Source of the DNA: Clostridia bacterium
GTDB lineage: Bacteria > Bacillota > Clostridia > TANB77 > CAG-465
DNA: 61,913 bases
NCBI GenBank assembly: GCA_017521005.1
Contig: JAFXEC010000052.1
Location: forward strand, 1-61,913
Reading direction: 5' to 3'
Position numbers and translations under genes: made by a program. A model generated the notes under the pieces. It was given only the letters and a program-made list of their open reading frames with translations. It had not been told where the DNA came from and did not search any database. Of the stretch, positions 3,460 to 46,064 are shown in pieces. How positions within the stretch are numbered: the stretch's first letter is position 1; each line of letters begins with the position of its first letter.

Positions 3460-3467
3460 GTGGCTAT

Positions 3468-4232: not shown

Positions 4233-4240
4233 TAATTAAG

Positions 4241-4274: not shown

Positions 4275-4404
4275 GCCAAATAATAATAAAAATAACAAAA
4301 AATATATAGCATTTGAAAAAACTTTGTGATAACATATATTTGTATAGTAATAAAGTGGATATTTCTGCGTAGATTTAAGCAAAGTATCTTAGGAGGTAAA
4401 ACAT

Positions 4405-5223: not shown

Positions 5224-5244
5224 TCTAAAGATAAAAGAGGAAAA

Positions 5245-7038: not shown

Positions 7039-7067
7039 AAGGTCGTTATGACCTTTTATTTTTTTAT
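7037..7067 (+). terminator. Rho-independent terminator
   Basis: aaaaggtc-gttat-gacctttt hairpin plus T-run. Confidence 0.7.
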
Positions 7068-7130
7068 ACCTTGTTATATAATTACAAAGTAAATTATTAT
7101 AAAAGAAACAAAGATTTTAATGGGGGTAAT

Positions 7131-8033
7131 ATGAAATCTGAAAAAAATATATTTATAGCGTTTATATTAAACTTGCTGTTTGCAATAGTTGAGCTTATAG
7201 GAGGTTTTGTAACAAATAGTATCTCTATAGTATCAGACTCTGTTCATGATTTTGGAGATGCGTTAAGTATAGGAATGGCATTTTTCTTAGAGAAGAAATC
7301 TAATAAAAAGCCAGATACTAAATATACATATGGATATCTTAGATATTCATTATTAAGTGCGTTACTTACATCAGTAATATTACTTGTTGGAGCAATATTT
7401 GTAATAATAAACGCAGTGCCAAGATTAGTAAATCCAACTGAAGTAAATCATACTGGTATGATTATTCTTGGAATACTTGGAGTATGTGTAAATTTAATAG
7501 CAGCAGCAAGAACATCGCATAGCCATAACTTAAACGAGAAAGCTATTAATCTTCATTTAATAGAAGATGTATTAGGTTGGATAGCAGTTCTTGCAGGAAG
7601 TGTAGTAATTAAGTTTACAGGTTTGTACATAATAGACCCAATATTATCTATTGGAATAACAATATACATTTTATATCACGTATATAGAAATATTAAAGAG
7701 GTATTTGAAGTGCTATTAGAAAAAGCTCCAAGTGACATAGATATAGAAAAACTAACACACGAATTAAATGAACTAGAAGAAGTAAAAGATGTACATCATA
7801 TGCATATATGGACTATGGATAATATACACCATTATATAACACTTCATGCAGTACTAGATGAAGAAAATAAAGATATAGAACATGCAAAACATGAGATAAG
7901 AGAAGTATTAGAAAAATATAATCTTACACATTCTACTATAGAAATAGAATATAACAAATGTGAACATGATGGTTGTGAGATATCTCACATAGAAGGTGAG
8001 CATGAACATCATCACCACCACCATCATCATTAA
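7131..8033 (+). CDS. Cation diffusion facilitator (CzcD/ZitB-like Zn/Co/Cd efflux) with His-rich C-terminal tail
   Basis: ORF 7071..8033; ATG at 7131 after TGGGGGT. Six TM helices, HDFGD and HLIEDVLGW metal-site motifs, tail EGEHEHHHHHHHH. Confidence 0.85.
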   Translation: MKSEKNIFIAFILNLLFAIVELIGGFVTNSISIVSDSVHDFGDALSIGMAFFLEKKSNKKPDTKYTYGYLRYSLLSALLTSVILLVGAIFVIINAVPRLVNPTEVNHTGMIILGILGVCVNLIAAARTSHSHNLNEKAINLHLIEDVLGWIAVLAGSVVIKFTGLYIIDPILSIGITIYILYHVYRNIKEVFEVLLEKAPSDIDIEKLTHELNELEEVKDVHHMHIWTMDNIHHYITLHAVLDEENKDIEHAKHEIREVLEKYNLTHSTIEIEYNKCEHDGCEISHIEGEHEHHHHHHHH

Positions 8034-8066
8034 TATATAATTAGTTATAGTTTAGGAGGTAGTACT

Positions 8067-8576
8067 ATGGAAAAAGTGGATATATACAATAGATTTAGAG
8101 AACATACTGGAAAAACTAAAGGAAGAAAAGAAGTAGAAGCAGGAGAATACAGAATCTCTACACACATTTGGGTAAAAGATTTAGAAGGAAAAATTCTTGT
8201 ACTAAAACGTTCAGAAAAGGAAGATAAATTCCCTGGTATGTGGGCTCAAGTAGGTGGCGGAGTAGTAGCAGGAGATACAAGCAAAGAAACAGTTGTAAAA
8301 GAATGTATGGAAGAATTAAAGCTTACTGTAACTGAGAATAATATGTACTATGTTGGAAGCTATACACGTACAAGAGACATAGTAGATGTATGGCTTGTAG
8401 AACAAGATATAGATGTATCTAAACTTGTATTCCAAGAAGATGAAGTAGCAGATGCTAAACTAGTAACTATGGAAGAATTTGATCATATGATTGCACAAGG
8501 AATAGTAGTTCCTTCAATAAATCCTTCATACGATTTAATGAAAAACTATTTGAAACAATATAAAGATAAGAAATAA
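8067..8576 (+). CDS. NUDIX hydrolase
   Basis: Nudix box GGGVVAGDTSKETVVKECMEELKL. Confidence 0.8.
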   Translation: MEKVDIYNRFREHTGKTKGRKEVEAGEYRISTHIWVKDLEGKILVLKRSEKEDKFPGMWAQVGGGVVAGDTSKETVVKECMEELKLTVTENNMYYVGSYTRTRDIVDVWLVEQDIDVSKLVFQEDEVADAKLVTMEEFDHMIAQGIVVPSINPSYDLMKNYLKQYKDKK

Positions 8577-8602
8577 TAAAAATAAATTAAAGAGGAAAAT
8601 AT

Positions 8603-8935
8603 ATGGTAGGTAAATATAAGGTAATAACACTATGTGGTTCTACTAAATTTAAGGATGAATTTTTAAGAGAACAAAAACGCTTAACGTTAGAAGGAAACAT
8701 AGTAATTTCTGTAGGACTATTTGGCCATTCTGGGGATAACGAAGTTTGGGAGAATATGGACGAAGGGACTTTAACTAAAACTAAAGAAATGTTAGATGAT
8801 ATGCATAAAAGAAAGATAGATATGGCAGATGAAATATTTGTTATTAATGTAAATGGTTACATAGGTGAAAGTACAAAGTCTGAAATAGCTTATGCAGAAA
8901 GTACAGGCAAAACAGTAAGGTATCTAGAAAGTTAA
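8603..8935 (+). CDS. Small conserved hypothetical protein (CGSTKF motif; possibly nucleoside deoxyribosyltransferase-like fold)
   Basis: 110-aa ORF with RBS AGAGGA. Fold assignment rests only on recollection of similar small proteins. Confidence 0.35.
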   Translation: MVGKYKVITLCGSTKFKDEFLREQKRLTLEGNIVISVGLFGHSGDNEVWENMDEGTLTKTKEMLDDMHKRKIDMADEIFVINVNGYIGESTKSEIAYAESTGKTVRYLES

Positions 8936-8950
8936 TAAATGGAGGTACAT

Positions 8951-9826
8951 ATGAAAAACGTAATATTAGAAATAAAAGGATTAACTAAATATTATGGGAA
9001 AATATTAGGTGTAGAAGATTTATCTTTATCTTTAAATGAAGGTGAAGTGTTTGGCTTTATTGGACCTAATGGTGCAGGTAAAAGTACTACTATTCGTTCT
9101 ATAATGCATTTAATAAACAAAACAGCGGGAATTGTTTTAGTTAATGGTAAAGAGTTTAATAGAAATGATACTAGTATAAAAGAGATGATTGGTTATCTTC
9201 CAAGTGAAGTTAATCTTTATGAAGATTTAACAGTTAAGCAAATGTTAGATTACCACGAATCTTTTTATAACAAAGACATACATAAAAGAAGATGCGAACT
9301 AGTAGAAAGACTAAAATTAGATGAGACTAAAAAGGTAGAAGATTTATCTTTAGGTAATTCTAAGAAGTTAGGCATAGTTCTTGCTTTTATGCATGAACCA
9401 AAGCTTTTAATATTAGACGAACCAACAAGTGGACTAGATCCTATTATGCAACAAGAGTTTTATAAACTGCTTGTAGAGGAAAAGAAAAAAGGTACAACAA
9501 TATTCTATTCTACGCATATATTAAGTGAGATATCTAAGATTTGTGATAGAGTGGGTATTATTAAAAATGGTAAACTTCTAAAAGTAGAAAAAATAGGAGA
9601 ACTTCTTAAAAAGAATTTAGATTTAGTAACAATTGAATCTAAAGAGGTGGCTGCTATTTTATCTGAACTTAAAGTAGAAACTATAGAAAAGGAAAAGAAT
9701 ACTGTTAAGTTCAAAAACGTATTACCTGCAAATGAGTTAATAAAAGTTATTTCTAAATATGATATAGATGATATTTTAATTGAGGAAGCAAGTTTAGAAG
9801 ATATCTTCCTACATTATTATGAATAG
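8951..9826 (+). CDS. ABC transporter ATP-binding protein (ABC-2 type)
   Basis: ATG at 8951 after GGAGGT. Walker A GPNGAGKST, signature LSLGNSKKL, Walker B LLILDEPTSGLD. Confidence 0.9.
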   Translation: MKNVILEIKGLTKYYGKILGVEDLSLSLNEGEVFGFIGPNGAGKSTTIRSIMHLINKTAGIVLVNGKEFNRNDTSIKEMIGYLPSEVNLYEDLTVKQMLDYHESFYNKDIHKRRCELVERLKLDETKKVEDLSLGNSKKLGIVLAFMHEPKLLILDEPTSGLDPIMQQEFYKLLVEEKKKGTTIFYSTHILSEISKICDRVGIIKNGKLLKVEKIGELLKKNLDLVTIESKEVAAILSELKVETIEKEKNTVKFKNVLPANELIKVISKYDIDDILIEEASLEDIFLHYYE

Positions 9827-9837
9827 GAGGTAATAAT

Positions 9838-10629
9838 ATGTTTAAGAGAGAAATGAAAATAAACTTAAAAGGATTTTTAATATGGACAACAATACTTGTT
9901 GGATTGTTTTTCTTAATACTTGTTATTTATCCTAATGTAATAGCAGGTGAAAGCGCAGAAATGATGGATGAAATGCTTAAGATGTTTCCAGAAGATTTGT
10001 TAAAAGCATTTAATATGGATATATCTTCAATTAATACAGCTTTTGGTTGGCTTAAATCTGAGGGCTTTGTTATGATACTTTTAATAATAGGATGCTATGC
10101 TGGAGTATTAGGTTCTAATATACTACTTAAAGAGGAAAGTGATAAAACAATAGAATACTTAAATAGTTTGCCTGTAAGTAGAACAAAGATTGTTACAAGT
10201 AAAGTGTTTGCGGGATTAATATACATAGTTTTAATGGTAGTATTACTTGGAATATTTAACTTTATAGGATTAAGTATTACAGAAGAATTTGATGAAAAAC
10301 TTCTAATATTGCTTAGTATAACACCATTATTACCAGCAGTTGTAATATACTTTATGTGTATGTTTTTATCTACATTTACACACAAGACTAAAAAGACATT
10401 AGGCATAAGTTTAGGAATAGTAATGCTAAGCTATGTATTACAAGTCTTGTCTACTATGGGAGAAAAATTAGAATTCTTAAAGTATACATCTGCATTTACA
10501 TTAGCAGATATACGTAATGTAATGACAGAAGCGTGTATAAACCCTGTTATGATAGTTGTAACAGTAACAATATCTTTAATACTATTTATAGTTACATTAT
10601 TCAGATATGATAGAAAAGAATTAGTATAA
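9838..10629 (+). CDS. ABC-2 family permease
   Basis: Six predicted TM helices, coupled to the upstream ATPase. Confidence 0.75.
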   Translation: MFKREMKINLKGFLIWTTILVGLFFLILVIYPNVIAGESAEMMDEMLKMFPEDLLKAFNMDISSINTAFGWLKSEGFVMILLIIGCYAGVLGSNILLKEESDKTIEYLNSLPVSRTKIVTSKVFAGLIYIVLMVVLLGIFNFIGLSITEEFDEKLLILLSITPLLPAVVIYFMCMFLSTFTHKTKKTLGISLGIVMLSYVLQVLSTMGEKLEFLKYTSAFTLADIRNVMTEACINPVMIVVTVTISLILFIVTLFRYDRKELV

Positions 10630-21262: not shown

Positions 21263-21514
21263 TTATTGTGTATTTTCGCTAGGATTTTCCATAGTATCTA
21301 TTCTATCTTTAGATTCTCTTAAACACTTTTTGTTATTTGCAATTAAACATTTGCAACTGTTAGTAGCACTAGTTAAACAGTTTTCTACTTGAGCGATTGA
21401 AGAGAATATAGCAAGGTTAAAGCCACATACATAATGATTACAAGGCAGTCTAAAACGAGGATTTAGACAACACAGGAGTTTGTTTAGCAAGTTAGAGTTA
21501 TTAATGTTATTCAT
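21263..21514 (-). CDS. Small cysteine-rich hypothetical protein (83 aa, 8 Cys)
   Basis: ATG at 21514 after GGGGTG. CC...C..YVC...C...C.C....KC pattern; no signal peptide. Confidence 0.45.
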   Translation of the reverse strand: MNNINNSNLLNKLLCCLNPRFRLPCNHYVCGFNLAIFSSIAQVENCLTSATNSCKCLIANNKKCLRESKDRIDTMENPSENTQ

Positions 21515-21647
21515 AATACACCCCATAAAAACAGTTCTTGTATATTTTATGTAAGAGTGTCTTGAATTGTTAGATGTTCAAAATAAATTTCTTTTCTTTT
21601 TTATATCTTTGTGATACAATTTGCAACAAGAGAGGGTATATGTATAT

Positions 21648-23201
21648 ATGAAAAACGAAGATTTAGTCACGATAATAGTTCCTGTATACAATAGAGAAAA
21701 ATATATAAAAGAAACACTACAAAGTATTCTTAATCAAACATATACAAACTACGAGGTAATATTTGTAGATGATGCATCTACAGATGCTAGTATTAGTATA
21801 CTTGAAGAATACACAAAGAATAATGCTAAGTTCACACTAATTAAGCTTAGGAGAAATATGGGCGTCTCTTTTGCAAGAAATATTGGTATAAGAAAAGCAA
21901 GTGGACGTTATATTGCTTTTTTAGATTCAGATGATTTATGGCTTCCACATAGACTTGAAGAACAGATAAAATTCGCTAAAGAAAATAACTATGCTTTTAC
22001 ATATTCTGCGTTTAAGTATATTACAGATGATGGAAGCAAGATAAGCAAAAAGATAGAAGTCCCATTTGAGTTGGACTATGATACCGCGCTTCTAAATACT
22101 AGAATTCTAACAATAACAGCATTAATAGATTTACAAAAGATTCCTAAGTATTTGTGTTATATGCCCCGTTTCAAACATGAAGATATGGCTACTTGGTGGA
22201 AAATATTAAAAAATGGATACAGTGCTTATGGCTTAAATAAAACGCTTGCATATTGTAGAATAACAGAAAAATCAAGAAGTGGAAATAAGATTAAAAGTGC
22301 ATATTTTAGATGGAAGTTATATAGAAAGATGGAGAAACTAAACATCTTTAAGAGTATATATTGCTTTATGCATTATGTGTTTAATGCTGTGAAAAAACGT
22401 GGAGGAAAATACAGTGTTAGAAAAGATAATACGTTATCTGTAGCATTGTCTACAATGCATCTAAAAAACGATGAAGATGTAAATAACATTATTAATAAAA
22501 TGAAGATTACATCAGATTATTTAATAGTAAATCAAACGGATAAAGATAATATAAATATATCTAATGAAAATGTAGTTACAAGGTTCGAGAGAGGATTAAG
22601 TAAAAGTAGAAATACTGCATTAGATAGTTGTAAATCAGATGTAATTCTTTTTGCTGATGATGATGTTAAATATTTAGACAACTATTCTGAGATAGTATTA
22701 GATGCCTATTTAGAACATCCTAAAGCGGATATGATTTGCTTTTATGTAGAAAGTACAAATAACAAAAGAAAAACAAAGAGAATTAGAACAGGTAAGCTTG
22801 GATATATAAACGCTATGAAAATAATATCTGCAGAGATGAGTATAAAAAAAGCATCATTTGAGAGAGCTAAAATTAGATTTGACGAAGATTTTGGCATAGG
22901 GGCACCTAACAATAGGGGTGAAGAACAAATATTAATTTATGAGGCTTTAAGAAAGAATCTTAATGTAATATTTGTTAATAAAAAGATTGCAGATATTGAT
23001 CAAACAGAAAGTACATGGTTAAAAGATTACGATGAAAATTATTTCTATATACAGGGCAAGGTATATAAAAGATTAACAAAGAAGTGGTATTTGTTTTGGA
23101 TATTACAATATGTAATTAGAAAATATCCAATGTATAAAAAGAGTGTAAGTTTTAGACTTGCATTAAAAAATATGTTAAAAGGAGCAAAGGAGTATAAATA
23201 G
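21648..23201 (+). CDS. Two-domain family 2 glycosyltransferase
   Basis: ATG at 21648. First GT2 domain: IIVPVYN, VDDAS, LDSDD. Second GT-A-like domain with FADDDV. Confidence 0.85.
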   Translation: MKNEDLVTIIVPVYNREKYIKETLQSILNQTYTNYEVIFVDDASTDASISILEEYTKNNAKFTLIKLRRNMGVSFARNIGIRKASGRYIAFLDSDDLWLPHRLEEQIKFAKENNYAFTYSAFKYITDDGSKISKKIEVPFELDYDTALLNTRILTITALIDLQKIPKYLCYMPRFKHEDMATWWKILKNGYSAYGLNKTLAYCRITEKSRSGNKIKSAYFRWKLYRKMEKLNIFKSIYCFMHYVFNAVKKRGGKYSVRKDNTLSVALSTMHLKNDEDVNNIINKMKITSDYLIVNQTDKDNINISNENVVTRFERGLSKSRNTALDSCKSDVILFADDDVKYLDNYSEIVLDAYLEHPKADMICFYVESTNNKRKTKRIRTGKLGYINAMKIISAEMSIKKASFERAKIRFDEDFGIGAPNNRGEEQILIYEALRKNLNVIFVNKKIADIDQTESTWLKDYDENYFYIQGKVYKRLTKKWYLFWILQYVIRKYPMYKKSVSFRLALKNMLKGAKEYK

Positions 23202-24595
23202 TGGAAAAGGCTAGATTACTTAAAAGAGTAAATTCGTATTTTATATCTAATACATTAACAAAAGTTTTTTCCTTTTGTTTAGTGATTCTTTATGCCTTTT
23301 ACATATCTCCAGATAACTTTGGAGATTATGAATATGTTCAATCTTTAATAAATATAGTTGTCCCATTTTCTTTCTTAAGTATATGGGAAGCAATATTAAA
23401 GTTTGGATTAGATGAAAAAGTAAATAAGCAAAAAGTAATTGGTACAAGCGCAATATTTACATTAGGTATGGCTGTTATACTTACTATAGTATGCATAACA
23501 TATTTTTGTTTTAATAATTCTGGTATTTTAATACCAACCTTTGTAACTTTAACATTCGTGATAGATGGTATTAGAATAATGTGGCAACATTATCTAAAGA
23601 TACTTAACAAATATGATGTGTATGTTAAATCTAGCGTAATTGGAAATGTAGTAAGTATAGCTTCAGTGGTTATTATGGTTGTATGCTTTAGATTACAACT
23701 TGTTGCTTTGTTTGTTTCTAGCTTACTTGGAACAATTACAAGTATATGTATAATAGAGTTTAAGGAACATATTTTAGCGTATATTAAGAAAAACAATATA
23801 GATTTATCTATGTTAAATAACATGATTAAATATTCTATGCCGCTTGTTATAGCTGCTATTTTAACATGGGGAATAACTGGACTTAGTAAGTTTGTTATAC
23901 AAAATTATATAAGTGATGAAGCAAATGGAATATATTCTTTTGCACATAAATTTACAATAATTATAACATTTATATCTACGATATTAGGTGCGGCAATAGC
24001 AGAAGAAATGTTAACTTTTTCAAAAGATAAATTCAATAAAGAGTTTGCTAATGTAACAAATAAACTTACAAATGGTTATATAACTTTAGGAATAATTGCG
24101 ATGCCGTTAATAATGATAGTGTATAAAATAATAGAGAAAACAAAGTATTATGAGTCTAAGAAATATGTACCATTACTTATTTTGTATTTTATATTTTTAA
24201 CACTTGTAAATCATATTTCTATCGTATTTAAGAAATATAGCAAGAATAAATATAGCCTACTTGCAACATTAATTGGAGTAGTAGTTACAATAATGGTAAT
24301 GTTTTTAAGTATTAGAAGAGTTGGGGTATTAGGAGTAGTTTTAGCACAATTTTCAGGAGCATTAACAATGTTAATAACTAGCTTAATATTTGCAAGAAAA
24401 TACGTTAAAGTAAGGATAAATAATGTTAAAACAGTATTGCTGTTGTTAGCATATATATTGTTTAGTACAGCTACATTAATGGTAAATTGGTATCTATCAA
24501 TAGCATTATTCCTATTTACAATTTTTGTGTTTAAGGATAATATATTAGATATATTTAAAGAGTATAAAGGAAGAAAAAATGAAGAAAGTATATAA
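23201..24595 (+). CDS. Wzx-type oligosaccharide flippase (MOP superfamily)
   Basis: About 12-14 TM helices. GTG start overlaps the GT2 stop. Typical position in a glycan locus. Confidence 0.75.
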   Translation: MEKARLLKRVNSYFISNTLTKVFSFCLVILYAFYISPDNFGDYEYVQSLINIVVPFSFLSIWEAILKFGLDEKVNKQKVIGTSAIFTLGMAVILTIVCITYFCFNNSGILIPTFVTLTFVIDGIRIMWQHYLKILNKYDVYVKSSVIGNVVSIASVVIMVVCFRLQLVALFVSSLLGTITSICIIEFKEHILAYIKKNNIDLSMLNNMIKYSMPLVIAAILTWGITGLSKFVIQNYISDEANGIYSFAHKFTIIITFISTILGAAIAEEMLTFSKDKFNKEFANVTNKLTNGYITLGIIAMPLIMIVYKIIEKTKYYESKKYVPLLILYFIFLTLVNHISIVFKKYSKNKYSLLATLIGVVVTIMVMFLSIRRVGVLGVVLAQFSGALTMLITSLIFARKYVKVRINNVKTVLLLLAYILFSTATLMVNWYLSIALFLFTIFVFKDNILDIFKEYKGRKNEESI

Positions 24596-25202
24596 AGTAA
24601 TAAAGAGGGTACTAGATATATTAATATCTTTAATTGGAATAATATTGTTATTACCAATATTTCTTTTGATAGCACTTGTAATAAAATTAGATTCTAAAGG
24701 AAAAGTTTTTTATTTACAAGAACGTATAAAGAAGGATGGTAAAAAGTTTAACATAATTAAATTTAGAACAATGGTACATGATGCAGATAAAAGACTAGAA
24801 GAATTTTCTAAAGAACAATTAGAAGAATACAAGATAAATTACAAACTTAATAACGATCCAAGAATAACTAAAGTTGGGAAGTTTTTAAGAAAAAGTGGAT
24901 TAGATGAACTCCCACAACTAGTAAATGTATTAAAAGGGGATTTATCTTTAATAGGGCCAAGGCCGGTTGTTTTAGATGAAGTTGAAAGATATAAAGAAAA
25001 TAAGGATGAGGTACTTAGTGTAAGACCAGGTATAACTGGATATTGGTGTGCGTTTTCTGATGAAAATACAACATATGAAGAACGTATGAAAATGGAATTA
25101 TATTATGTAGAAAACATTTCATTAGGATTAGATATAAAAATAGTTTTTAGGACTATATCTGTAATCTTTTTAAGAATTATAAATAAGAGAAAAGTTAATT
25201 AA
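24579..25202 (+). CDS. Undecaprenyl-phosphate sugar phosphotransferase (bacterial sugar transferase family, priming enzyme)
   Basis: Single N-terminal TM helix, KFRTM, DELPQLVNVLKGDLSLIGPRP. Confidence 0.9.
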   Translation: MKKVYKVIKRVLDILISLIGIILLLPIFLLIALVIKLDSKGKVFYLQERIKKDGKKFNIIKFRTMVHDADKRLEEFSKEQLEEYKINYKLNNDPRITKVGKFLRKSGLDELPQLVNVLKGDLSLIGPRPVVLDEVERYKENKDEVLSVRPGITGYWCAFSDENTTYEERMKMELYYVENISLGLDIKIVFRTISVIFLRIINKRKVN

Positions 25203-25261
25203 AAATGTTGAATAAAAAATAAAAATATAATAATATTTATATATAAATTAAGGAGGAACAA

Positions 25262-26497
25262 ATGAAAAAGAGACAAGGTATATCATTAATAGTGTTGGTT
25301 ATAACAATAATTGTTATGATAATACTAGCATCTGCGGTAGTAGTAACACTTAGTAATGCTAATATTATAGATAGAGCAGGTGATGCAGTAGATAAAACTA
25401 ATATAAAACAAGTAGAGCAAATAGCTTCGATTGCGTGGTCGGAAGCGTTTTTGGAAAAATATAGAGGAGCAGATTTAAGAGATAAGGTTTATGAAACACT
25501 AAGAGAAGGCGGTGTAAATCCTTATGATTATAATATTACAGTTACAGATAAAGGTGTAACGGTAATAGATAAGGAAAAAGCAGGAACATTACTTGTAGGA
25601 CCATGGGAACTAAAAATTACTAAAACTTCAGGAAAGGTTACTAAAGCTGTTGTAACAAACGGCGTGGTAGAACTAAATGTAGGTGCTACTATAGATTATA
25701 TGCCTGGCGGAGTTGGAGATACAAATTATGTTGCTGGGTGGAAGATTTTAGGCGCTGATTCAAGTGGTAGATTACTTATATTGTCGAATGAAGGTGTTAC
25801 AGCGGAAAAAGTTGAACTATATATAAGAGATGGTTGGGTAAATGCTGAGACAATTCTTGATGGAGCGGCAGCAACTTATGCAGATGGCGTTATGGGTATT
25901 AATTCTAGAAGTATAAAAGTAGAAGATATAGATGCTTTAACTGGATATGATAAAACAACATTTAATGTTGGATTAATAAATGAATACAATACAACTGTAA
26001 CGATAGAATGGGATGGATCAGACTATCCTAAATATACAAATGGTAGCGTAACTGGTAATTTCAGTCGTTCGCATAAAGATAGCGGCTTTAGATATTATGA
26101 TATGGCAACCTCTTCATGGAAGACATCATATTTTACAACAACACCTACTGAAATAACTAAAATAACAAACGATTATTATGGTTATGTTGGAGCGGATTAT
26201 ATGGATACAACATTGCCTGCGTATAATATGATATTCCAAAGCAGGTCAGCGCCGTATAATACGGTTGAAACATATTGGCTAAATTCTAAGTTTATAAATG
26301 TATGTACAGATCATGTTAGATTTGGTATTAGAAGTTTAAGAAATGGTGAAGTTTTTGATGATGATGTGTATATTTCATGGCACTATGGGAACTCACCAGA
26401 TTATGAAGTAAGAGCAGTAGTTACACTAGCGGATAATGTAATATTAAGTGAAAGCCAAAAGAATCCGGGAACATATAATATATATGTCAATAATTAA
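25262..26497 (+). CDS. Pilin-like-handle protein A (unknown beta-rich C-terminal domain)
   Basis: N terminus MKKRQG-ISLIVLVITIIVMIILASAVVVTLSN, shared with ORFs at 29029, 30980 and 42803. RBS AAGGAGG. Confidence 0.7.
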   Translation: MKKRQGISLIVLVITIIVMIILASAVVVTLSNANIIDRAGDAVDKTNIKQVEQIASIAWSEAFLEKYRGADLRDKVYETLREGGVNPYDYNITVTDKGVTVIDKEKAGTLLVGPWELKITKTSGKVTKAVVTNGVVELNVGATIDYMPGGVGDTNYVAGWKILGADSSGRLLILSNEGVTAEKVELYIRDGWVNAETILDGAAATYADGVMGINSRSIKVEDIDALTGYDKTTFNVGLINEYNTTVTIEWDGSDYPKYTNGSVTGNFSRSHKDSGFRYYDMATSSWKTSYFTTTPTEITKITNDYYGYVGADYMDTTLPAYNMIFQSRSAPYNTVETYWLNSKFINVCTDHVRFGIRSLRNGEVFDDDVYISWHYGNSPDYEVRAVVTLADNVILSESQKNPGTYNIYVNN

Positions 26498-26629
26498 ATA
26501 TTAAGAATAAAAAGGATGATGATAAATAATGATGTGAACCTTTGTTAGGAGACATTAAATAATTCATGATCCTTTTTTTATTAAATAATATAGTATATAA
26601 TAATGAAAGAAATGAGAGGGAAAACATAT

Positions 26630-28984
26630 ATGTTAAAGAATGTGGTAAACAAAGGGTTAGAATATATATCTATATTAATTCTTCTAATATCGTTTCTTTT
26701 AGTGGGAACACCGCTTAAAGAAAATACACTGGTGTTTAGTATGTTTATAATAGGCATAGGAATAATATTTGGAATATATAAAACAATAAAAAAAGATAGG
26801 CTATTTACAAACAAAATAGATATATTTGTTTTGTTATTTTATTTAACTCCATTAATACCGATTTTGTTTAATTCATATGCCAATTTAGAAGATACATTAA
26901 TAGCATTAACAAAAAACATAGCGCTATTTAATATATATTTAATGTTGAAAGAGAGATTAAGTGTTGATGATGGTGGAAAAGAAAAGATAATAAATGTGTT
27001 GCTAATAGGACTTTTAATATTATCTTTCTTTGGCTTTGATGAAATGTTAGGTAGAACCGTATATAGATATATGAAGCATATTGGAATACCTAATGTAGTA
27101 AATTATGAAGCAAGGATGTTTTCGTTGTTATGCTATGCAAATACATTTGCGGTTATTATGGCAATAGGGATGTTTTTAGTTTTATATAAATTAAATAAGA
27201 TTAGTAATATAGATAATAACAACAATAAAAAGGTAAATAAGAAAGAAATAATGTGGTACATATATGCTGGGATAATGTATGTATTTGTATTATCTTTAAT
27301 TATGACATACTCAAGAAGCGTCTGGATTATTACAGCTTTAGTGTTTGGCATATGTTTTTTGTTTAATAAGGATAGAGTATATAATGTGTGTGTGTTGTTG
27401 ATAAACGTTATATTATCTTTAATAGGAATAAAATTCTTAAACTTGTTTATAACAGAAAAATTATACATATTTGCATGGCTTAATATAATAGGTTTTGCGG
27501 GAGTTAGCGCGATTGCAACGAATCTTCTTAACAAGATAAAAAATAAATTGGTAAATATAAAATTAACAACATGTATATGTTTAATGGTTGGTCTTGTAGT
27601 AGTTATCCTTTTAGCATATATAGTTGGACTAAAATTAATAACACCACTTAATATATTTGCAGATGGTAAAAGTAGCGAAGAAGTAAGATATAAGTTATAT
27701 AACATACAGCCTAATACGGATTATACATTTTCTTTAGATATAGACGCAAAAACATTAAGGAATATGGATGGAATATATACTGTAGAAATAACTGAAGAAA
27801 ATAAATATTATGATACTATAGCTACACATAACATAGCCTTTAGTACATTTAAAGGGAACAAAGAAATTAAGTTTAAGACAAAAGATAGTACGGTAGCTAT
27901 GGTAATATTCTTTAAGAGCAATAATAAATATTTACAAGATGGTTTGAGAATAAATAGTGTAAATATAAATGGAAAAACAAAAGGATTAAGTTATGCATAT
28001 TTACCAATAAATTTAGTAGAAAAAATAGAAAGTTTCACATTAAACAATAAAAGTTTGTGGGAGAGATTTGTATACCATAAAGATGCATTAAAGATAATAA
28101 AAAGTAGTCCTTTAACAGGTAATGGAGCAAATGGTTGGAAATATAATTATGCTAACGTACAAGAATATATGTACGGTGCATCAGAACCTCATAGTCACAT
28201 ATTACAATTAATAATAGATAATGGTATAACTTCAGGAATACTTTTAATAACTCTTATAGGTTATGTAGTATTTGTAATTGCTAAGAAAAAACATTTTAAT
28301 TTATTAGATGCGGCGTTTATATTACTTAATATACATTCAATAGTAGATTTTAATATGTCTTTCTTTGTAGTAAATGTTGTTTGGATAATAATGTTTGGTT
28401 TAATAATTTGTAACACCGAAGAAAATGAAAAGAAAATCAAAACAACAAATTTAACAAACAAATTAAATCTAGTTATAAATATATCTTGTACAGTAATAAG
28501 TGTTTTGGTTATATTACTAGGCATAAGTACATATGCACTAATAGATGAAAAAGATGAAATAGTGGATATAAGTAATGAGTATATTAAACAAGAAAAATAT
28601 AATGAGGCTTTAGTAAAAATAAGTGAGTTAGAAGATGATGGCAAATACAGAGGATGTATTTATGATGTAATATATAATTTGGATTATGCAAAATTAAATA
28701 GTAAAAGTTTAGAATATATATATAACATCATTTCAAAAGAGAAGCTAACTGTAAATACAGAGTTCACTATGATGTTAAATAGAATTGTAGACAATATATT
28801 AAAGAATATAGAAAATGATGAGTACATAAATAAATTTGCAAAGTATATAGTTAATAATAATGAAAAGGTTGTTTTATGTATAAAAAATAAAGATGCAAAT
28901 AGAATGGAAGAAATGTACATTAATATGCTTCTTGAAGAACAAAAAAATATGTATGAATATTCAAAAAATGTATTGCCAAAATAA
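26630..28984 (+). CDS. Wzy_C / O-antigen-ligase-family polytopic membrane protein with inserted extracytoplasmic domain and C-terminal helical extension
   Basis: ORF 26603..28984; ATG at 26630 after GAGAGGG, alternatives at 26603 and 26612. More than 10 TM helices. TYSRSVW and EPHSHILQLIIDNGI resemble the conserved Arg and His motifs of WaaL/PglL-type enzymes. Confidence 0.65.
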   Translation: MLKNVVNKGLEYISILILLISFLLVGTPLKENTLVFSMFIIGIGIIFGIYKTIKKDRLFTNKIDIFVLLFYLTPLIPILFNSYANLEDTLIALTKNIALFNIYLMLKERLSVDDGGKEKIINVLLIGLLILSFFGFDEMLGRTVYRYMKHIGIPNVVNYEARMFSLLCYANTFAVIMAIGMFLVLYKLNKISNIDNNNNKKVNKKEIMWYIYAGIMYVFVLSLIMTYSRSVWIITALVFGICFLFNKDRVYNVCVLLINVILSLIGIKFLNLFITEKLYIFAWLNIIGFAGVSAIATNLLNKIKNKLVNIKLTTCICLMVGLVVVILLAYIVGLKLITPLNIFADGKSSEEVRYKLYNIQPNTDYTFSLDIDAKTLRNMDGIYTVEITEENKYYDTIATHNIAFSTFKGNKEIKFKTKDSTVAMVIFFKSNNKYLQDGLRINSVNINGKTKGLSYAYLPINLVEKIESFTLNNKSLWERFVYHKDALKIIKSSPLTGNGANGWKYNYANVQEYMYGASEPHSHILQLIIDNGITSGILLITLIGYVVFVIAKKKHFNLLDAAFILLNIHSIVDFNMSFFVVNVVWIIMFGLIICNTEENEKKIKTTNLTNKLNLVINISCTVISVLVILLGISTYALIDEKDEIVDISNEYIKQEKYNEALVKISELEDDGKYRGCIYDVIYNLDYAKLNSKSLEYIYNIISKEKLTVNTEFTMMLNRIVDNILKNIENDEYINKFAKYIVNNNEKVVLCIKNKDANRMEEMYINMLLEEQKNMYEYSKNVLPK

Positions 28985-29028
28985 AAAATATATTATAACA
29001 TTTTGTATATAAATATGGAGGAAAACGA

Positions 29029-30861
29029 ATGAAAAATAACAAAAAAGGTATATCGTTAATAGTATTAGTAATTACAATAATAGTTATGATAATATTGGCA
29101 GCAAGTGTTGTAATAACGTTAAGTAATACTGGAATAATAGGAAAGGCATCGGAGGCAACAACGATGACAGATTTGAAATCGTTACAACAAGAAGCAGATG
29201 TTGTAAAAGCGTTAGAGTTAGGAAATATATACACTGGCTCTGATAGAAATTTAAGATTAACTAAAGCACTGTTACTAGAAAGACTACATCAACATTTTAA
29301 AGGCAGTACTAAAAATGGAGATAGAATAATAACAGCAGATGGAAAATATGTAATTATAGTTGGAGATGACTTATCTATAACCATAGGTGTTAATGAACCA
29401 GGCAAGAAAAACGAGTTAACACTAGCTATAACATATAATTCGCCAGTTACATCTATACCATATAAAGTATATGTTACACCAACACTTGAGGGATGGAAAA
29501 GAGAAGATGCAGCAACAGGTGAAACATATTCAAGTTATGAAGAATATGCAGAAGCGATTTTAGCAACTGTAAAATCCGAATCAGAACTTGAACAATTATT
29601 TGTAGAAGGAAACAATTATTGGAATGCGGAGTATGGTGGTATGGAACCAATGTATCAAAACATAAATCAATTGGTTGCAACATGGAGTTTAATCTATGAT
29701 AGTGGCGCTTATACTACTTTGGATGGTATGATTGAACATTATGGTTTTGAAAGCTTGGGAGATTTAGCTTTGTCTTTAGAGTTGATTAAACCAGAAGGGT
29801 ATTACGGAAAAGGTTATATAGAATTTGCTGAAAATGAATTAAAAAATACTACAAAAACATATGAAGAAATATATATGGAAGGTCGTATATATTTAGCAGA
29901 GACAGAAGAATGGGGTAATTTAACAGACCTTAAGAACGCTAGTACTTTTGCAGAGTTTGTAGAAAGTGACATGGGAATTCCAAACATAAATAATATGGAT
30001 CAACTTCTTGCAGACTATAAGGCGGCTTATCAAGCAAATTATATGACAAAAGAGAATTTATTAATAGTAATGAAAGCGGTTGAACCTAAAAAGTATAGTG
30101 ATATATCAGAATTGCAAGATGGAGAAGTTTTAGTCAAAGGTCCAAGTGGAAAAACTGTAATAGCTATGTCTGGAGAAACGGTTGAAATTACTATGATAAG
30201 TGTAAACGAAACTACATTTGAAGCGGTTGCGTTTAACGGAAAAACAACTAAAAAGACATTTAACCCTGAATCAAATATTGCACCACAAAATTATACAGCG
30301 CTAGATACAAAATTCTTTGAGTTTGAATATGATTCAACAACAATGACAGCGACATTAAAGAAGATAAAAGATTCATATCAAGAAGTTGGATATTACGAGC
30401 ATATTAGCTTGCCAGCACCATATACATATCCTAAATCTATAATAGATGATAATGGAACAAAAATTACAGATATAATAATACCGTCAAAAGTGGTAAATCC
30501 AGCAGATAATAAAGAATATACTATAACAGCAATAGCAAGCTACGCATTTTCAGTGCCATCTAACGTAACAGGAAGCACACAACCAAGCTTTACAAGTTTA
30601 ATATTACCTGAAACAATAACAACAATAGGAGATTATGCATTCTTCTGTTGGAATAAAGCTACTAAATTGGTATTACCAAAGAGTTTAACTACAGTAGGAT
30701 ATCAAACATTTAGTTATTGGAATGAATTAGACGTAATAAGTTATTCAGGAACACAAGCACAATATTCGAATATATTATTTGAGCCTCAATGGTCACTTGA
30801 AGGAAAAGAATTTGAACAAAAATTAGTAATATGCGATACTATATATTCAATAGCAGATTAG
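29029..30861 (+). CDS. Pilin-like-handle protein B with C-terminal BspA-type leucine-rich repeats
   Basis: N terminus MKNNKKG-ISLIVLVITIIVMIILAASVVITLSNTGII. C terminus has ITAIASYAF, ITTIGDYAFFC and LTTVGYQTF repeats. Confidence 0.75.
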   Translation: MKNNKKGISLIVLVITIIVMIILAASVVITLSNTGIIGKASEATTMTDLKSLQQEADVVKALELGNIYTGSDRNLRLTKALLLERLHQHFKGSTKNGDRIITADGKYVIIVGDDLSITIGVNEPGKKNELTLAITYNSPVTSIPYKVYVTPTLEGWKREDAATGETYSSYEEYAEAILATVKSESELEQLFVEGNNYWNAEYGGMEPMYQNINQLVATWSLIYDSGAYTTLDGMIEHYGFESLGDLALSLELIKPEGYYGKGYIEFAENELKNTTKTYEEIYMEGRIYLAETEEWGNLTDLKNASTFAEFVESDMGIPNINNMDQLLADYKAAYQANYMTKENLLIVMKAVEPKKYSDISELQDGEVLVKGPSGKTVIAMSGETVEITMISVNETTFEAVAFNGKTTKKTFNPESNIAPQNYTALDTKFFEFEYDSTTMTATLKKIKDSYQEVGYYEHISLPAPYTYPKSIIDDNGTKITDIIIPSKVVNPADNKEYTITAIASYAFSVPSNVTGSTQPSFTSLILPETITTIGDYAFFCWNKATKLVLPKSLTTVGYQTFSYWNELDVISYSGTQAQYSNILFEPQWSLEGKEFEQKLVICDTIYSIAD

Positions 30862-30876
30862 AATAAAATATAGAAT

Positions 30877-30911
30877 AGGATATAACAGCGAATGTTATAT
30901 CCTAATTTTTT
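30877..30911 (+). terminator. Rho-independent terminator
   Basis: ggatataac-agcgaat-gttatatcc followed by taatttttt. Confidence 0.7.
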
Positions 30912-30979
30912 ATATAAATATTGAAAAAATAAAAAATATATTATAGTATATATTTATAAAAATATAAGGGGGAAAACAA

Positions 30980-31912
30980 ATGAAAAGAAAACAAGGTATA
31001 TCGCTAATAGTACTAGTAATAACAATTATAGTAATGATAATATTAGCAGCTTCAGTAGTGATTACTTTAAGTAATACAGGAATAATAAATAAAGCAAATG
31101 AAGCAACAGACACAACTAATTTACAACAAGTACAACAATTAGCTACTTTAACATGGTCTGATGGATTTTTGGATAATTTAAGAGGAGACGACTTAAGAGA
31201 CTATGTATTAGGTGAAATGGGAGATTATACAAATGATTATGATATAGATGTATCAGACAAAGGTGTAGAAGTAAATAAAAAAGGTGAAGGACCAATCGAA
31301 CCATTTGACTATTATACATATGATTATGATACGACAAATATGACGGCAGCATTAAAAGGTGTGCAAGAGAAGTATGCGGTAACAGGATACTATAATTATA
31401 GAACAGATAAATATCCTTATACAACAGCAATAAAGGATGATGAAGGAAATACTGTAACAAGAGTTGCAATTCCATCAACAGTAACTGGACCTGATGGTGA
31501 GACATATACAGTAACTTCAATAAAAGCGGGAGCGTTTTCATCTAGTACAGCAGGTTCGCTAAACCCAGCGCTTGATGATCAATCACAATTTACAGAAATA
31601 GTATTACCGGATACATTGGTAACAATTGACAATAATGCATTTGCCTTATGTGTAAATATAAAAGAAATAGTAATACCAGAAGGTGTTACAAATATAAATT
31701 ATGGTGCGTTTATGGTATGTAAATCATTAAAGAAGATAGTATTGCCGAAAACATTTACAACACTTGGTCTGTGGGTATTTGGATATGCAGACAATTTAAC
31801 AGATGTATATTATGCTGGTACAGAAACAGAATGGTCAAATCTATCATTAGATGAAATGGGTAATGAGCCCCTTACAAATGCAACTATGCATTATAACTAT
31901 GTAGCAGAATAA
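30980..31912 (+). CDS. Pilin-like-handle protein C with C-terminal BspA-type leucine-rich repeats
   Basis: N terminus MKRKQG-ISLIVLVITIIVMIILAASVVITLSNTGII. C terminus has VTSIKAGAF, LVTIDNNAFALC and VTNINYGAFMVC repeats. Confidence 0.75.
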   Translation: MKRKQGISLIVLVITIIVMIILAASVVITLSNTGIINKANEATDTTNLQQVQQLATLTWSDGFLDNLRGDDLRDYVLGEMGDYTNDYDIDVSDKGVEVNKKGEGPIEPFDYYTYDYDTTNMTAALKGVQEKYAVTGYYNYRTDKYPYTTAIKDDEGNTVTRVAIPSTVTGPDGETYTVTSIKAGAFSSSTAGSLNPALDDQSQFTEIVLPDTLVTIDNNAFALCVNIKEIVIPEGVTNINYGAFMVCKSLKKIVLPKTFTTLGLWVFGYADNLTDVYYAGTETEWSNLSLDEMGNEPLTNATMHYNYVAE

Positions 31913-31943
31913 TTAAATCAGTAAACAAATTAAATAATAAAAG

Positions 31944-31972
31944 AAAACATAACAGGTAACTGTTATGTTTTT
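31944..31972 (+). terminator. Rho-independent terminator
   Basis: acataacag-gtaa-ctgttatgt followed by tttt. Confidence 0.75.
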
Positions 31973-42802: not shown

Positions 42803-44233
42803 ATGGTAAAAAACAAAAAAGGTATATCATTAATAGTATTAGTAATAACAATAATAGTTATGATAATTTTAGCAGCCGCGGTTGTTGTTACATTAAACAA
42901 CAGCGGAATAATAGGTAGAGCAAGCGAGGCGGTAGATGATACGGAATTAAATGATGTTAGACATTTAGCAACTTTAGCGTGGTCTGAAGCATATTTGGAA
43001 GGTCTAGATTTAGAGGATGCTGTATTTGAAGCGCTAGAAAATAATAATGTTAATACGGATAAATACGATATAATCGTTACAGATAAAGGGGTAACTGTAA
43101 ACAAGAAAGATGAGAACGCCGAGAAAGGAACTGTTCCACCAGCAGATTGGCAAGATAGTGTAAGAATTGTAACTGAAGAGGGTGTTCCTATTCCAAAAGG
43201 TTTTGCACGCTCTCCATACGCAACTGAAGATCAAGTGGCAGAAGGAATGGTTATATATGCTTTAACAGAAGATGAAATAAAAGCTGGTAAGAAGACAATT
43301 ACTACTGATGCTAGCCATCAATATTCTTTAGAGAATAGAAATCAATTTGTATGGGTACCAGTAGATAGAGATGCTTTTGTAACAGAATTTGTGAGAAAGA
43401 ATTTTGCTGGTACTAATGTAAATATTTCTAATGAATTAGGCAAGGGATATTGGGAAATAGTGCTAGACGAAAATAATATGCCTGCAGCCCAAAACATGCA
43501 AAATAGCGCGTATATATCAGATATGGTGTATGAAGAAATAACTGCGATGTATGAAAGTGTTAAAAAATATGGAGGTTTCTATATAGGTCGTTATGAGGCA
43601 GGAACAGACACATATGATGAAGTTACATTTTTGTCTAATGGAAGTGCAAAAGTTGCAATGGGTAAATATCCTATAACTAATATAGATTGGGGTAATGGCA
43701 CTATGGCAGATGATAATGGTGGTGCTGTAGCAAAATCTAGAGAGTTATATCCAAAGAGTAATTCATTATATGGAGCAGTTTCTACTTTAACATATGGTGT
43801 GCAATGGGATGCTGCAATATCTAGTTGGGTAAAATTAGAACCAACATTTGATTTCTTTGATCCAAGTAAAGGTATATGGTGGGATACTATTATAACAGCG
43901 TCAGATTTTAATACTAACGCAAAGCAATCAAGAATAGACACAGATGAATGGGCACTAAGAGTTTGGACAGCTGCTGAACCAAGAGTAGCAGATGATGATC
44001 CACAATTATTTAGTACTGGTGCATGTAAAAATTCTATTAATTATAACGTTTATGATATGGGAGGTAATTTGTTTGAATGGACAATGGAAGGAACTTCAAC
44101 ATATCAACGTTCTGTAAGAGGTAGTTATTGGTGGCATTACGTAATGTATGGTGGGGTAAATGATAGAGACGGTGAATCAATGGGACCAGACCCAGTATAT
44201 TTAGGATTTAGACCATCGTTATATATTAAGTAA
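42803..44233 (+). CDS. Pilin-like-handle protein D with C-terminal FGE-sulfatase (SUMF1/DUF323, C-type-lectin fold) domain
   Basis: ATG at 42803 after AAGGAG. N terminus MVKNKKG-ISLIVLVITIIVMIILAAAVVVTLNNSGII. C terminus has YGVQWDAA, YDMGGNLFEWTMEG, RSVRGSYWW and LGFRPSLY. Confidence 0.7.
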   Translation: MVKNKKGISLIVLVITIIVMIILAAAVVVTLNNSGIIGRASEAVDDTELNDVRHLATLAWSEAYLEGLDLEDAVFEALENNNVNTDKYDIIVTDKGVTVNKKDENAEKGTVPPADWQDSVRIVTEEGVPIPKGFARSPYATEDQVAEGMVIYALTEDEIKAGKKTITTDASHQYSLENRNQFVWVPVDRDAFVTEFVRKNFAGTNVNISNELGKGYWEIVLDENNMPAAQNMQNSAYISDMVYEEITAMYESVKKYGGFYIGRYEAGTDTYDEVTFLSNGSAKVAMGKYPITNIDWGNGTMADDNGGAVAKSRELYPKSNSLYGAVSTLTYGVQWDAAISSWVKLEPTFDFFDPSKGIWWDTIITASDFNTNAKQSRIDTDEWALRVWTAAEPRVADDDPQLFSTGACKNSINYNVYDMGGNLFEWTMEGTSTYQRSVRGSYWWHYVMYGGVNDRDGESMGPDPVYLGFRPSLYIK

Positions 44234-45607: not shown

Positions 45608-45935
45608 GCAAGTATTTCTGACAGTCGCGTAAGCTAGTCTTGCGAGGAAAGTCCGGGCACCTCAAGGTAGTAATGGTAGATAACGTCTACTGGGAGTGAT
45701 CCTAAGGAAAGTGCAACAGAAAATAACCGCCGTAAGGTAAGGGTGAAAAAGTGAGGTAAGAGCTCACTAATTTGTATGGTGACATACGAGTGGTGTAAAC
45801 CCCATTTGGTGCAACACAGATAGAGAAGATTAAGGTTACCTTGCCGCCTTCTTGAAATGTGGCTAGAGGTGTATAGCAATGTACATCCCAGATTAATGGC
45901 TGTCTAAAACAGAACCCGGCTTATGAAATGCTTGC
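45608..45935 (+). ncRNA. rnpB: RNase P RNA
   Basis: GAGGAAAGTCCGGGC near the 5' end and ACAGAACCCGGCTTA near the 3' end. P1 pairing is GCAAGTATTTC / GAAATGCTTGC. Confidence 0.9.
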
Positions 45936-46064
45936 AAATATTTGTTGTATGTTTATACATACAACTTTTTTGTAACCAAAATGTAATAAAAAAAGTGTTG
46001 TAAAATACAAATATATGCGGTAGTATATATTATATACGATTGTATGATATATAGGTGATAACTA

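Follow-up and report, generated by a model that had tools for sequence, protein, structure and literature searches.

A candidate O-glycosylation operon in an uncultured gut lineage

We analysed a stretch of 61,913 nucleotides from a Clostridia bacterium (contig JAFXEC010000052.1), hereafter called the window, and studied a gene cluster at positions 21648-31912 of its plus strand. The cluster encodes a short glycan-building pathway, a membrane enzyme of the Wzy_C superfamily and three proteins, A, B and C, that share a prepilin-like N-terminal domain, which we call the handle. We propose that the locus is a Wzx-dependent en bloc protein O-glycosylation operon, in which the Wzy_C-family ligase modifies the co-encoded handle and leucine-rich repeat (LRR) surface proteins, and we give this reading about an even chance. 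It builds on the gene content and order, the superfamily membership of the enzyme, its conserved residues, its predicted topology and the conserved adjacency of enzyme and handle genes. From these we infer the chemistry, the acceptor and the processing of the handle.

In the proposed pathway, a phosphoglycosyl transferase (PGT), whose family assignment is clear, would prime undecaprenyl phosphate at the cytoplasmic face of the membrane. Two GT2 glycosyltransferase domains would then add one sugar each, giving a short glycan linked to undecaprenyl pyrophosphate (Und-PP), probably a trisaccharide, and the Wzx flippase would turn it to the outer face. There, the Wzy_C-superfamily enzyme would act as terminal ligase and transfer the glycan to Ser, Thr or Tyr residues of surface proteins that carry the prepilin-like handle. 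The first acceptors would be A and B, from the same putative transcript, and C, encoded next to them, and acceptors would mostly be BspA-type LRR proteins. Within the enzyme, Arg238, Arg488 and His530 together with His578xxxAsp582 are predicted to make up the site for the Und-PP-glycan on the outer side of the membrane, while an outward beta-sandwich resembling a carbohydrate-binding module (CBM) and a helical domain resembling tetratricopeptide repeats (TPR) may hold glycan and acceptor.

Gene content and organization of the cluster

The original prediction had described a run of seven genes, and all seven were confirmed at or near 21648-31912, closely packed on the plus strand (window G+C content about 28%). 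The nearest contigs to the window are metagenome-assembled genomes (MAGs) named Clostridia bacterium, and the lineage is one of uncultured gut Clostridia. The first gene (21648-23201) encodes a two-domain GT2 glycosyltransferase of 517 aa with two stretches matching Pfam Glycos_transf_2 (E=3.9e-50). It is a fusion of two glycosyltransferases whose halves are separate genes in many relatives, for example at the loci numbered L007, L008, L012 and L020 in our set. The N-terminal half reached 269 bits with the NCBIfam TuaG model, under its 400-bit cut-off. We also considered this half as an undecaprenyl-phosphate-sugar synthase of the GtrB/PgfS type and rejected it, as the PgfS and ArnC scores were far under the TuaG score. 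The second gene (23201-24595) encodes a Wzx-type flippase of 464 aa (Pfam Polysacc_synt, E=3.4e-18; Polysacc_synt_3, E=1.2e-11). The third (24579-25202) encodes the initiating enzyme, a small monotopic PGT of 207 aa (Pfam Bac_transf, E=6.3e-66), which scored 263-274 bits with the C-terminal domain of the NCBIfam WbaP and EPS_sugtrans models, under cut-off. Wzx and PGT are fused in L001.

The remaining four genes encode handle protein A (25262-26497, 411 aa), which has a C-terminal domain without a Pfam match behind its handle domain of about 100 aa; the Wzy_C-superfamily membrane enzyme (26630-28984, 784 aa), the proposed terminal glycan ligase or O-oligosaccharyltransferase (O-OTase); and handle proteins B (29029-30861, 610 aa) and C (30980-31912, 310 aa), in which the handle precedes BspA-type LRRs (Pfam LRR_5, E=4.7e-9 and E=2.6e-17, respectively). 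Neighbouring genes either overlap or are separated by 44-132 bp, with distances across the cluster from -17 to 132 bp, and most genes have a good ribosome binding site. The gene for A lies 59 bp behind the PGT gene, with a strong ribosome binding site, and the gene for B lies 44 bp behind the Wzy_C gene. In a consensus scan, the first terminator-like hairpin 3' of the GT2 start was found after the gene for B (30876-30904, plus strand, 12-bp stem followed by a T-run), with none upstream of 30876 within the cluster; a second follows the gene for C (31943-31972, plus strand, 13-bp stem followed by a T-run). The location of A between PGT and enzyme, the 44-bp distance to B and the lack of a terminator-like site before 30876 speak for the proposed operon. 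Rfam and tRNA scans gave no match inside the cluster.

The cluster holds a complete glycan pathway without a polymerase or a gene for chain length: no second Wzy-like gene or chain-length gene was found inside it, in agreement with the original prediction. The capsule-type module that had been placed some 20 kb away is also real. It is a Wzz/CpsD/CpsB tyrosine-kinase module at 9-2133, with no adjacent glycosyltransferases inside the window.

Comparison of positions 21500-31000 with L005, the closest long relative, showed 98-99% DNA identity over the GT2-Wzx-PGT genes and 94-96% over the upstream flank. Identity fell to 81-91% from the C-terminal part of handle A through the Wzy_C gene to handle B, and the downstream flank was also at about 88%. 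Such a pattern might reflect recombination of a block of DNA or diversifying selection acting on the enzyme and the genes around it. A small Cys-rich open reading frame (ORF) of 87 aa (21263-21526, minus strand), without a Pfam family, lies between murA and the glycan cluster; a gene was called at the equivalent spot in L001, a relative of 52% identity (4432-4677, minus strand).

The enzyme belongs to the WaaL/PglL superfamily

On its own, the window enzyme scored 25.5 bits with Pfam Wzy_C, below the 31.7-bit threshold, and the match covered only aa 477-548. All 20 relatives examined matched Wzy_C (20/20, best E=1.1e-13), and membership of the WaaL/PglL superfamily is secure at the family level only, through these relatives and the family profile. 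The earlier assignment to the Wzy_C/O-antigen-ligase family therefore holds at the level of the family, which matches PglL and WaaL in profile searches. The start at 26630 is backed by relatives. Close relatives are few, with only about 30 sequence clusters in a collection of 5.8 billion proteins. Among species-representative genomes, full-length relatives occur only in MAGs of uncultured gut Clostridia, and partial matches in Paenibacillus, Cohnella, Bacillaceae and some Clostridium. A homologue from Clostridium sartagoforme (L066) was not informative; it has another architecture, Wzy_C with Peptidase_C39_2, and adjoins LPXTG proteins and a GH101 enzyme.

The AlphaFold2 (AF2) model of the enzyme (mean predicted local distance difference test score, pLDDT, 81.6) and a positive-inside analysis suggest about 15 transmembrane (TM) segments with the N-terminus inside. 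A beta-sandwich is inserted into the large outer loop (27647-27982, plus strand; aa 349-460, numbered from 26603). Its AF2 strands and Foldseek matches to CBM16, CBM4-2 and EclA (E 1e-3 to 1e-2, TM-score on target 0.4-0.5) indicate a CBM4/CBM16-like fold, and one relative (P0028) has a true Pfam CBM_4_9 domain at the same position (E=7.6e-11). Foldseek with the full-length model matched only this sandwich and gave no WaaL or PglL fold match, so the fold did not assign the enzyme to a subfamily. The C-terminus is predicted to form an outward-facing, all-helical, TPR-like domain (28526-28981, plus strand; aa 642-793; AF2 helices 616-790 and positive-inside analysis), preceded by an extra predicted TM segment. 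Distant relatives carry a true TPR domain there, with profile matches to the consensus TPR down to E=8e-43.

Searching the Protein Data Bank (PDB) with a family profile that included the C-terminus returned a flood of TPR matches, and a TM-only profile was used instead. The best match was 9rmk_A (E=8e-8), titled 'oligosaccharyltransferase', whose His349 numbering marks it as a Neisseria-type PglL, followed by the WaaL of C. metallidurans (7tpg_B, E=6e-6). Profile searches of this kind had been proposed as a way to separate WaaL, PglL and Wzy subfamilies; the enzyme did not group with the polymerases, and PglL was its best solved match.

The catalytic outer-loop segment (28064-28348, plus strand) contains R488, G506xG508, H530 and H578xxxD582 as invariant columns in alignments A1, A3 and A4. 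Across 48 sequences, Y178, N180, R488, G506xG508, H530, H578 and D582 were invariant and R238 (codon 27314-27316) nearly so. Members of the superfamily share an Arg, Arg, His set on the outer face (E. coli WaaL R215/R288/H338; PglL R224/R298/H349). The window enzyme family has the same conserved set: R238, R488 and H530 fall on the outer face in the topology analysis, R238 pairs with PglL R224, and R488 corresponds to PglL R298 by spacing only. In HMMER alignments, G506xG508, H530 and H578xxxD582 pair with PglL G316xG318, H349 and H400xxxE404. Q178, N180, G316, G318, H400, E404 and P406 are described as conserved in PglLs and not in WaaL, and we took the roles of the PglL residues from the same source (PMC3643930). 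Of this set, the enzyme keeps N180, the GxG and H578, with D582 in place of E404. Since the C. metallidurans WaaL also has the GxG in our alignment, the PglL-listed residues are not all discriminating. Taken by its sequence, the enzyme appears to lean slightly towards the OTase side of the superfamily.

A terminal ligase is favoured over a polymerase

Two relatives with about 29-30% identity to the enzyme over roughly the N-terminal 600 residues, at L025 and L022, have adjacent handle genes and are directly followed in their operon by an ABC-2 permease and an ABC ATPase of the Wzm/Wzt type (Pfam). Five Paenibacillus homologues have Wzm/Wzt within 1.3 kb. A comparable arrangement is known from Geobacillus stearothermophilus, where the Wzy_C protein WsaB was proposed as the ligase of an ABC-exporter S-layer glycan cluster (PMC2943079). 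Pathways of the Wzm/Wzt type complete the chain in the cytoplasm, so a Wzy polymerase is not needed. As the family works with both Wzx-type and ABC-type export, its simplest role is the shared last step, transfer to the final acceptor. The window protein matched no NCBIfam family, including the polymerase and TuaE-type models. In the wider family, the repeat-unit polymerase model glyco_rpt_poly matched only 4 of 48 members, while the models for a 'putative O-glycosylation ligase, exosortase-associated' and IctB were matched more often. No polysaccharide co-polymerase (PCP, chain-length) or LytR-CpsA-Psr (LCP) gene was seen in the 27 clusters inspected. The ABC-exporter context, PglL as best solved match and the lack of a polymerase-model match thus favour a terminal ligase over a Wzy polymerase.

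We consider it unlikely that the locus instead makes a Wzy-dependent wall glycopolymer, of the teichuronic acid or secondary cell wall polymer kind. The Wzy_C protein would then polymerize the flipped repeat like TuaE, the CpsC/CpsD pair 20 kb upstream would set chain length, an LCP protein encoded elsewhere would link the polymer to peptidoglycan, and the handle proteins would be unrelated or polymer-binding. TuaE and Wzy polymerases resemble the window enzyme in being polytopic, in that they can carry Wzy_C and in occurring with PGT, Wzx and TuaG-like GT2, and the PGT, Wzx and Wzy_C set of the cluster mirrors tuaA/B/E/G of the Bacillus subtilis tua operon. The TuaG-like N-terminal half of the GT2 (269 bits), the position of the GT2 gene as the most constant neighbour of the enzyme, the Wzz/CpsD/CpsB module within the window and a Wzz-like gene beside one Paenibacillus homologue (L067) would also suit a polymer, and the CBM-like module could grip a growing glycan. 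This model does not fit the family members in operon with Wzm/Wzt exporters, which have no need of a polymerase, nor the missing matches to NCBIfam polymerase or TuaE-type models. The window enzyme has no adjacent PCP gene, and neither PCP nor LCP genes accompany the family in the inspected clusters. Among solved structures, the nearest relatives of the enzyme are a protein O-OTase and a ligase, and the strong same-strand adjacency of handle genes would be left unexplained.

Two enzyme homologues have unusual upstream neighbours. In L027, a 989-aa protein (6955-9924) directly precedes the Wzy_C homologue; its N-terminus looks Wzx-like by eye, without a Pfam flippase match, and it also has SpaA/Cna-B-type domains, as in the backbones of Gram-positive pilins. 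In L017, whose lineage has no handle genes, the gene directly before the homologue encodes a surface protein longer than 3291 aa (1-9876, cut off at the locus edge) that shows Listeria-Bacteroides-type repeats by eye.

Handle genes are conserved beside the enzyme

Adjacency of handle and enzyme genes had been suggested as a check across related genomes, and it proved to be conserved. Neither of the two results named in the original prediction as refuting it, grouping with polymerases or loss of adjacency, was thus observed. We compared 27 enzyme lineages with less than 60% mutual identity and 28-54% identity to the window enzyme, counting the window's own lineage. In about 16 of the 27, a handle gene directly adjoins the enzyme gene and always shares its strand. 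It may lie upstream, downstream or between two paralogues of the enzyme and occurs in 1-4 copies, and the adjacent handles are mostly of the LRR_5 type. Handle genes were 6.7-fold denser in the 2.8 kb beside the enzyme than elsewhere in about 440 kb of flanking sequence (14/28; p=1.7e-5; 27 lineage representatives), a p-value that is approximate because the lineages are related by descent. Several handle genes scored as outside the 2.8 kb are still part of the same cluster. This enrichment shows that handle and Wzy_C genes are interleaved beyond chance. The handle is often within 100 bp of the enzyme gene or overlaps it in the ORF calls (L012, L021, L010 and L018); some overlaps may be artefacts of starting each ORF at its earliest candidate start codon. 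Both the window and L019 have handle genes lying between glycan genes, and adjacency persists through rearrangements and enzyme divergence to about 30% identity. A functional link between the enzyme and the handle proteins is therefore likely.

A large family of prepilin-like handle proteins

The handle domains of A, B and C (25262-25570, 29029-29340 and 30980-31285) are nearly identical over about 100 aa to that of a fourth protein, D (domain 42803-43110), which is encoded away from the cluster (42803-44233, plus strand) and has the same N-terminal motif. As D is unlinked to the cluster, the handle family is dispersed in the genome. Protein A begins with MKKRQGISLIVLVITIIVMIILA and belongs to no Pfam or NCBIfam family; its orthologues occupy the same place in L004 and L005. 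Protein B begins with MKNNKKGISLIVLVITIIVMIILA. For protein C, the AF2 model (pLDDT 87.5) has a TM helix at residues 6-32, a kink, helices 35-64 and 69-80 and a hairpin at 87-100, followed by the LRRs. The C-terminal domain of D resembles FGE-sulfatase-like handles of relatives and clusters with proteins of L016 and L029, and the L016 orthologue has a weak Pfam FGE-sulfatase match.

A homology search found more than 1000 proteins (sequence clusters) with the handle domain, 60-70% identical over the first 100 residues and present in several copies per contig. The modules that follow the handle vary and include LRR_5, FGE-sulfatase-like, DUF285, Big_2 and Lcl_C-like domains. In the family alignment that was sampled, residues G6 to V18 reach 90% conservation or more. 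The handles have the basic leader, Gly at -1 and hydrophobic helix of a class III signal peptide, at the motif level only, as K/R-x-G|ISLIVLVITIIVMIILA. The label 'pilin-like' likewise rests on a motif, K/R-G-I-S-L-I-V-L-V-I-T-I-I-V. In a few sources, handle relatives go under the names 'pseudopilin PulG' or 'type II secretion system protein'. The N-terminus may resemble archaeal class III signal peptides as well. Full-text literature searches with the handle motif strings returned nothing, and a keyword search for pilin-like BspA proteins returned nothing relevant.

One metagenome contig (L099, 3000-16100) encodes four small handle-type proteins (164-250 aa) among many short proteins with hydrophobic N-termini. 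The cluster has the look of a (pseudo)pilus operon, and no assembly ATPase was found on the contig.

It is possible that the locus is a dedicated glycosylation system for this family of more than 1000 clusters, with a new Wzy_C ligase family, bearing a CBM-like module and an outward TPR-like domain, that recognizes and glycosylates the handle or its LRR cargo. We put this forward more tentatively than O-glycosylation of the co-encoded proteins.

Comparison with known glycosylation systems

The original prediction had named Neisseria PglL and Pseudomonas TfpO/PilO as precedents. Both are relevant comparisons, but closer Gram-positive systems were missed. These are the S-layer O-OTases WsaB of G. 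stearothermophilus, WsfB of Paenibacillus alvei and Orf19 of Clostridium difficile Ox247, Firmicute enzymes that act en bloc, moving a glycan from Und-PP to a surface protein, as proposed for the window. WsaB and WsfB carry a Wzy_C domain, WsfB with a C-terminal TPR motif (PMC2943079), and Orf19 was described as a 'protein ligase'; in its mutant, the S-layer glycan is lost (PMC6254364). We liken these enzymes to the window enzyme by their published descriptions. The distant Paenibacillus homologues of the window enzyme, with Wzy_C and TPR beside Wzm/Wzt, are arranged like slg clusters. The window differs from the S-layer systems in that it has no S-layer gene, its export is of the Wzx type and not by an ABC transporter, its proposed acceptors are membrane-anchored prepilin-like LRR proteins, and its enzyme has the CBM-like insertion.

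In the pilin-linked systems TfpO/PilO (Pseudomonas), TfpM (Moraxellaceae) and PglS-ComP (Acinetobacter), a Wzy_C enzyme is encoded beside its acceptor in the same orientation, as in the window and in about 16 of the 27 lineages, and the acceptor of TfpO, TfpM or PglS has a prepilin-type N-terminus, as the handles do. TfpO and TfpM also have neither PglL_A nor Wzy_C_2 (PMC12645811; PMC3643930). Their acceptors, and that of PglS, are true type IV pilins with Glu at +5 from Gram-negative hosts, whereas the window handles have Val+5 and belong to a Gram-positive organism. TfpO and TfpM glycosylate a C-terminal Ser/Thr; in contrast, A, B and C end in ...VNN, ...IAD and ...VAE, and handle relatives in D, E or Y. 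B and C are also extended by large LRR modules, and the handles have no visible pilus machinery beside them.

Neisseria PglL (9rmk_A) shares with the window enzyme the R224/R298/H349 equivalents, the GxG, N180 and an H400xxxE404-like motif. PglL and WsfB carry C-terminal TPR motifs, to which the extra TM segment and outward helical C-terminal domain of the window enzyme are similar. The logic of Neisseria pgl, in which a PGT, sugar-adding glycosyltransferases, a flippase and an OTase produce and transfer a short glycan, is also like that of the window. Unlike PglL, the window enzyme lacks PglL_A/Wzy_C_2, P406 and Q178 and has a CBM-like insertion of about 115 aa, and PglL is usually unlinked to its substrate genes (PMC12645811).

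Points against the proposal and remaining alternatives

Several observations weigh against O-glycosylation of the handle proteins. Concerning the enzyme, the lead of PglL over WaaL in the PDB search was only about 6 bits, PglL Q178 is a Tyr and P406 is absent. Pfam PglL_A (PF15864) gave no match at E<=1, and Wzy_C_2 (PF11846) was marginal in 3 of 20 relatives (E>=0.09); judged by these Pfam models, the enzyme falls outside the PglL/PglS class. The original prediction had offered two functions, polymerase or OTase acting on the flanking proteins. The ligase function is favoured and the link to the handles likely, but this class assignment speaks against an enzyme of the PglL/PglS type. The CBM4/16-like outer-loop insertion, as modelled, hints at a carbohydrate acceptor at least as well as at a protein, and the TuaA/TuaB/TuaG-like gene set also suits a wall polymer.

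Concerning the handles, position +5 is Val or Ala and not Glu (Val+5 in the window handles), and N_methyl (PF07963/TIGR02532) did not match the window handles at E<=10. Full-length handle relatives reached 16.7-18.2 bits with N_methyl, below the 21.2-bit cut-off. One 40-aa fragment scored 24 bits; the match covered residues 1-26, taken from genuine L016 sequence, and the last 12 residues of the fragment were our consensus. The NCBIfam GspG and PpdD pilin models gave non-significant values (E 0.06-0.9), and Foldseek with handle C returned only BspA-type LRR structures and no pilin. GspE-type Walker A and GxGDxK motifs, marking an assembly ATPase and a PilD-type peptidase, were found neither in the window nor in the fetched loci, weak evidence since these loci were centred on Wzy_C. 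The pilin-like character proposed for A-C thus stands for the class III signal motif but not for the rest: the proteins resemble pilins only at the motif level and are not demonstrably type IV pilins. Given the missing Glu+5, the sub-threshold N_methyl scores, the LRR-only Foldseek result and the lack of visible pilus machinery, we call them prepilin-like handle proteins.

Adjacency also has its limits. In 11 of the 27 lineages (about 40%), the enzyme and GT2 pair is kept with no adjacent handle, and the gene that accompanies the enzyme most consistently is that of the GT2, not a handle gene. Adjacent handles are also missing in the rabbit MAGs (L013-L015). About ten long handle-centred metagenome loci had no Wzy_C gene nearby, in a scan of 20 loci of which few were long.

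If the enzyme is a ligase, its acceptor may alternatively be something other than a protein. In such a model, which we regard as improbable, a WaaL-like ligase would transfer the glycan onto a glycolipid, a lipoteichoic acid anchor or a wall polysaccharide recognized by the CBM-like module, and the handle and LRR proteins would be co-expressed, docking to the glycoconjugate or being masked by it. The evidence for a ligase serves this model equally. The CBM4/16-like outer-loop domain, with its true CBM_4_9 counterpart in P0028, the significant WaaL match in the PDB profile search and the lineages that retain enzyme and GT2 without a handle are all in line with it. It accounts for handle adjacency only indirectly, however, and the outward TPR-like domain, of a kind that typically binds proteins, and the PglL-type HxxxD motif argue for a protein acceptor. 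We are not aware, short of an exhaustive search, of any Wzy_C-type ligase in Firmicutes whose acceptor is not a protein.

Finally, we judge it very unlikely that there is no functional link at all, with handles as abundant mobile paralogues that gather in variable surface-structure regions and adjacency as the product of shared ancestry or insertion hot spots: the family does have more than 1000 members, several copies per contig and genes scattered elsewhere in genomes, and the lineages, 11 of 27 without adjacency, are phylogenetically related, but this would not explain the 6.7-fold density beside the enzyme, the constant strand, the frequent spacing of less than 100 bp or overlap, the handles embedded between glycan genes in the window and L019, or an adjacency that survives rearrangement and divergence to about 30% identity.

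Significance of a possible handle-directed O-glycosylation system

Wzy_C enzymes that O-glycosylate proteins en bloc have been studied thoroughly in Gram-negative pathogens; in Firmicutes, only a few S-layer systems are known. For the proposed operon, the mechanism and the logic of an enzyme encoded next to its acceptor are known; novelty lies in the enzyme family and its CBM-like insertion, in pilin-like acceptors from a Gram-positive cell and in the lineage of the host. If the proposal is correct, the mechanism would extend to widespread uncultured gut Clostridia (human, Hadza, rabbit and deer metagenomes) and to the BspA-type LRR surface proteins of a large paralogous family, which probably serve adhesion or host interaction. 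An enzyme family without annotation, with a CBM-like module inside its catalytic loop, would gain a function that can be tested, and there would be a first lead on the purpose of the highly conserved prepilin-like N-terminus. Were glycosylation further dedicated to the handle, this would be the first pilin-linked O-OTase of the Wzy_C type in a Gram-positive organism, and a new surface-display mechanism tied to protein glycosylation in abundant uncultured gut bacteria. O-OTases of new acceptor or glycan specificity are useful glycoconjugate tools.

Other features of the window

Behind the CpsB module, positions 2137-3459 encode a protein of 440 aa whose sortase domain is confined to the C-terminus (aa 312-434), behind a long low-complexity N-terminal region. 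A class A RNase P RNA was found at 45609-45938 (256.9 bits). The aspS gene (46892-48682), which has a T-box leader upstream (46588-46786), contains a single in-frame TAA at 47225-47227 (...KSVRIL*ECDTLPFQIEE...) in an otherwise continuous aspartyl-tRNA synthetase frame; this could be a sequencing error, a pseudogene or recoding. A secreted protein of 1480 aa is encoded at 55627-60069 and, by eye, combines a subtilase, BspA-type LRRs and dockerin-like C-terminal repeats (DANLDGKISALDYVRIKNHIM, twice).

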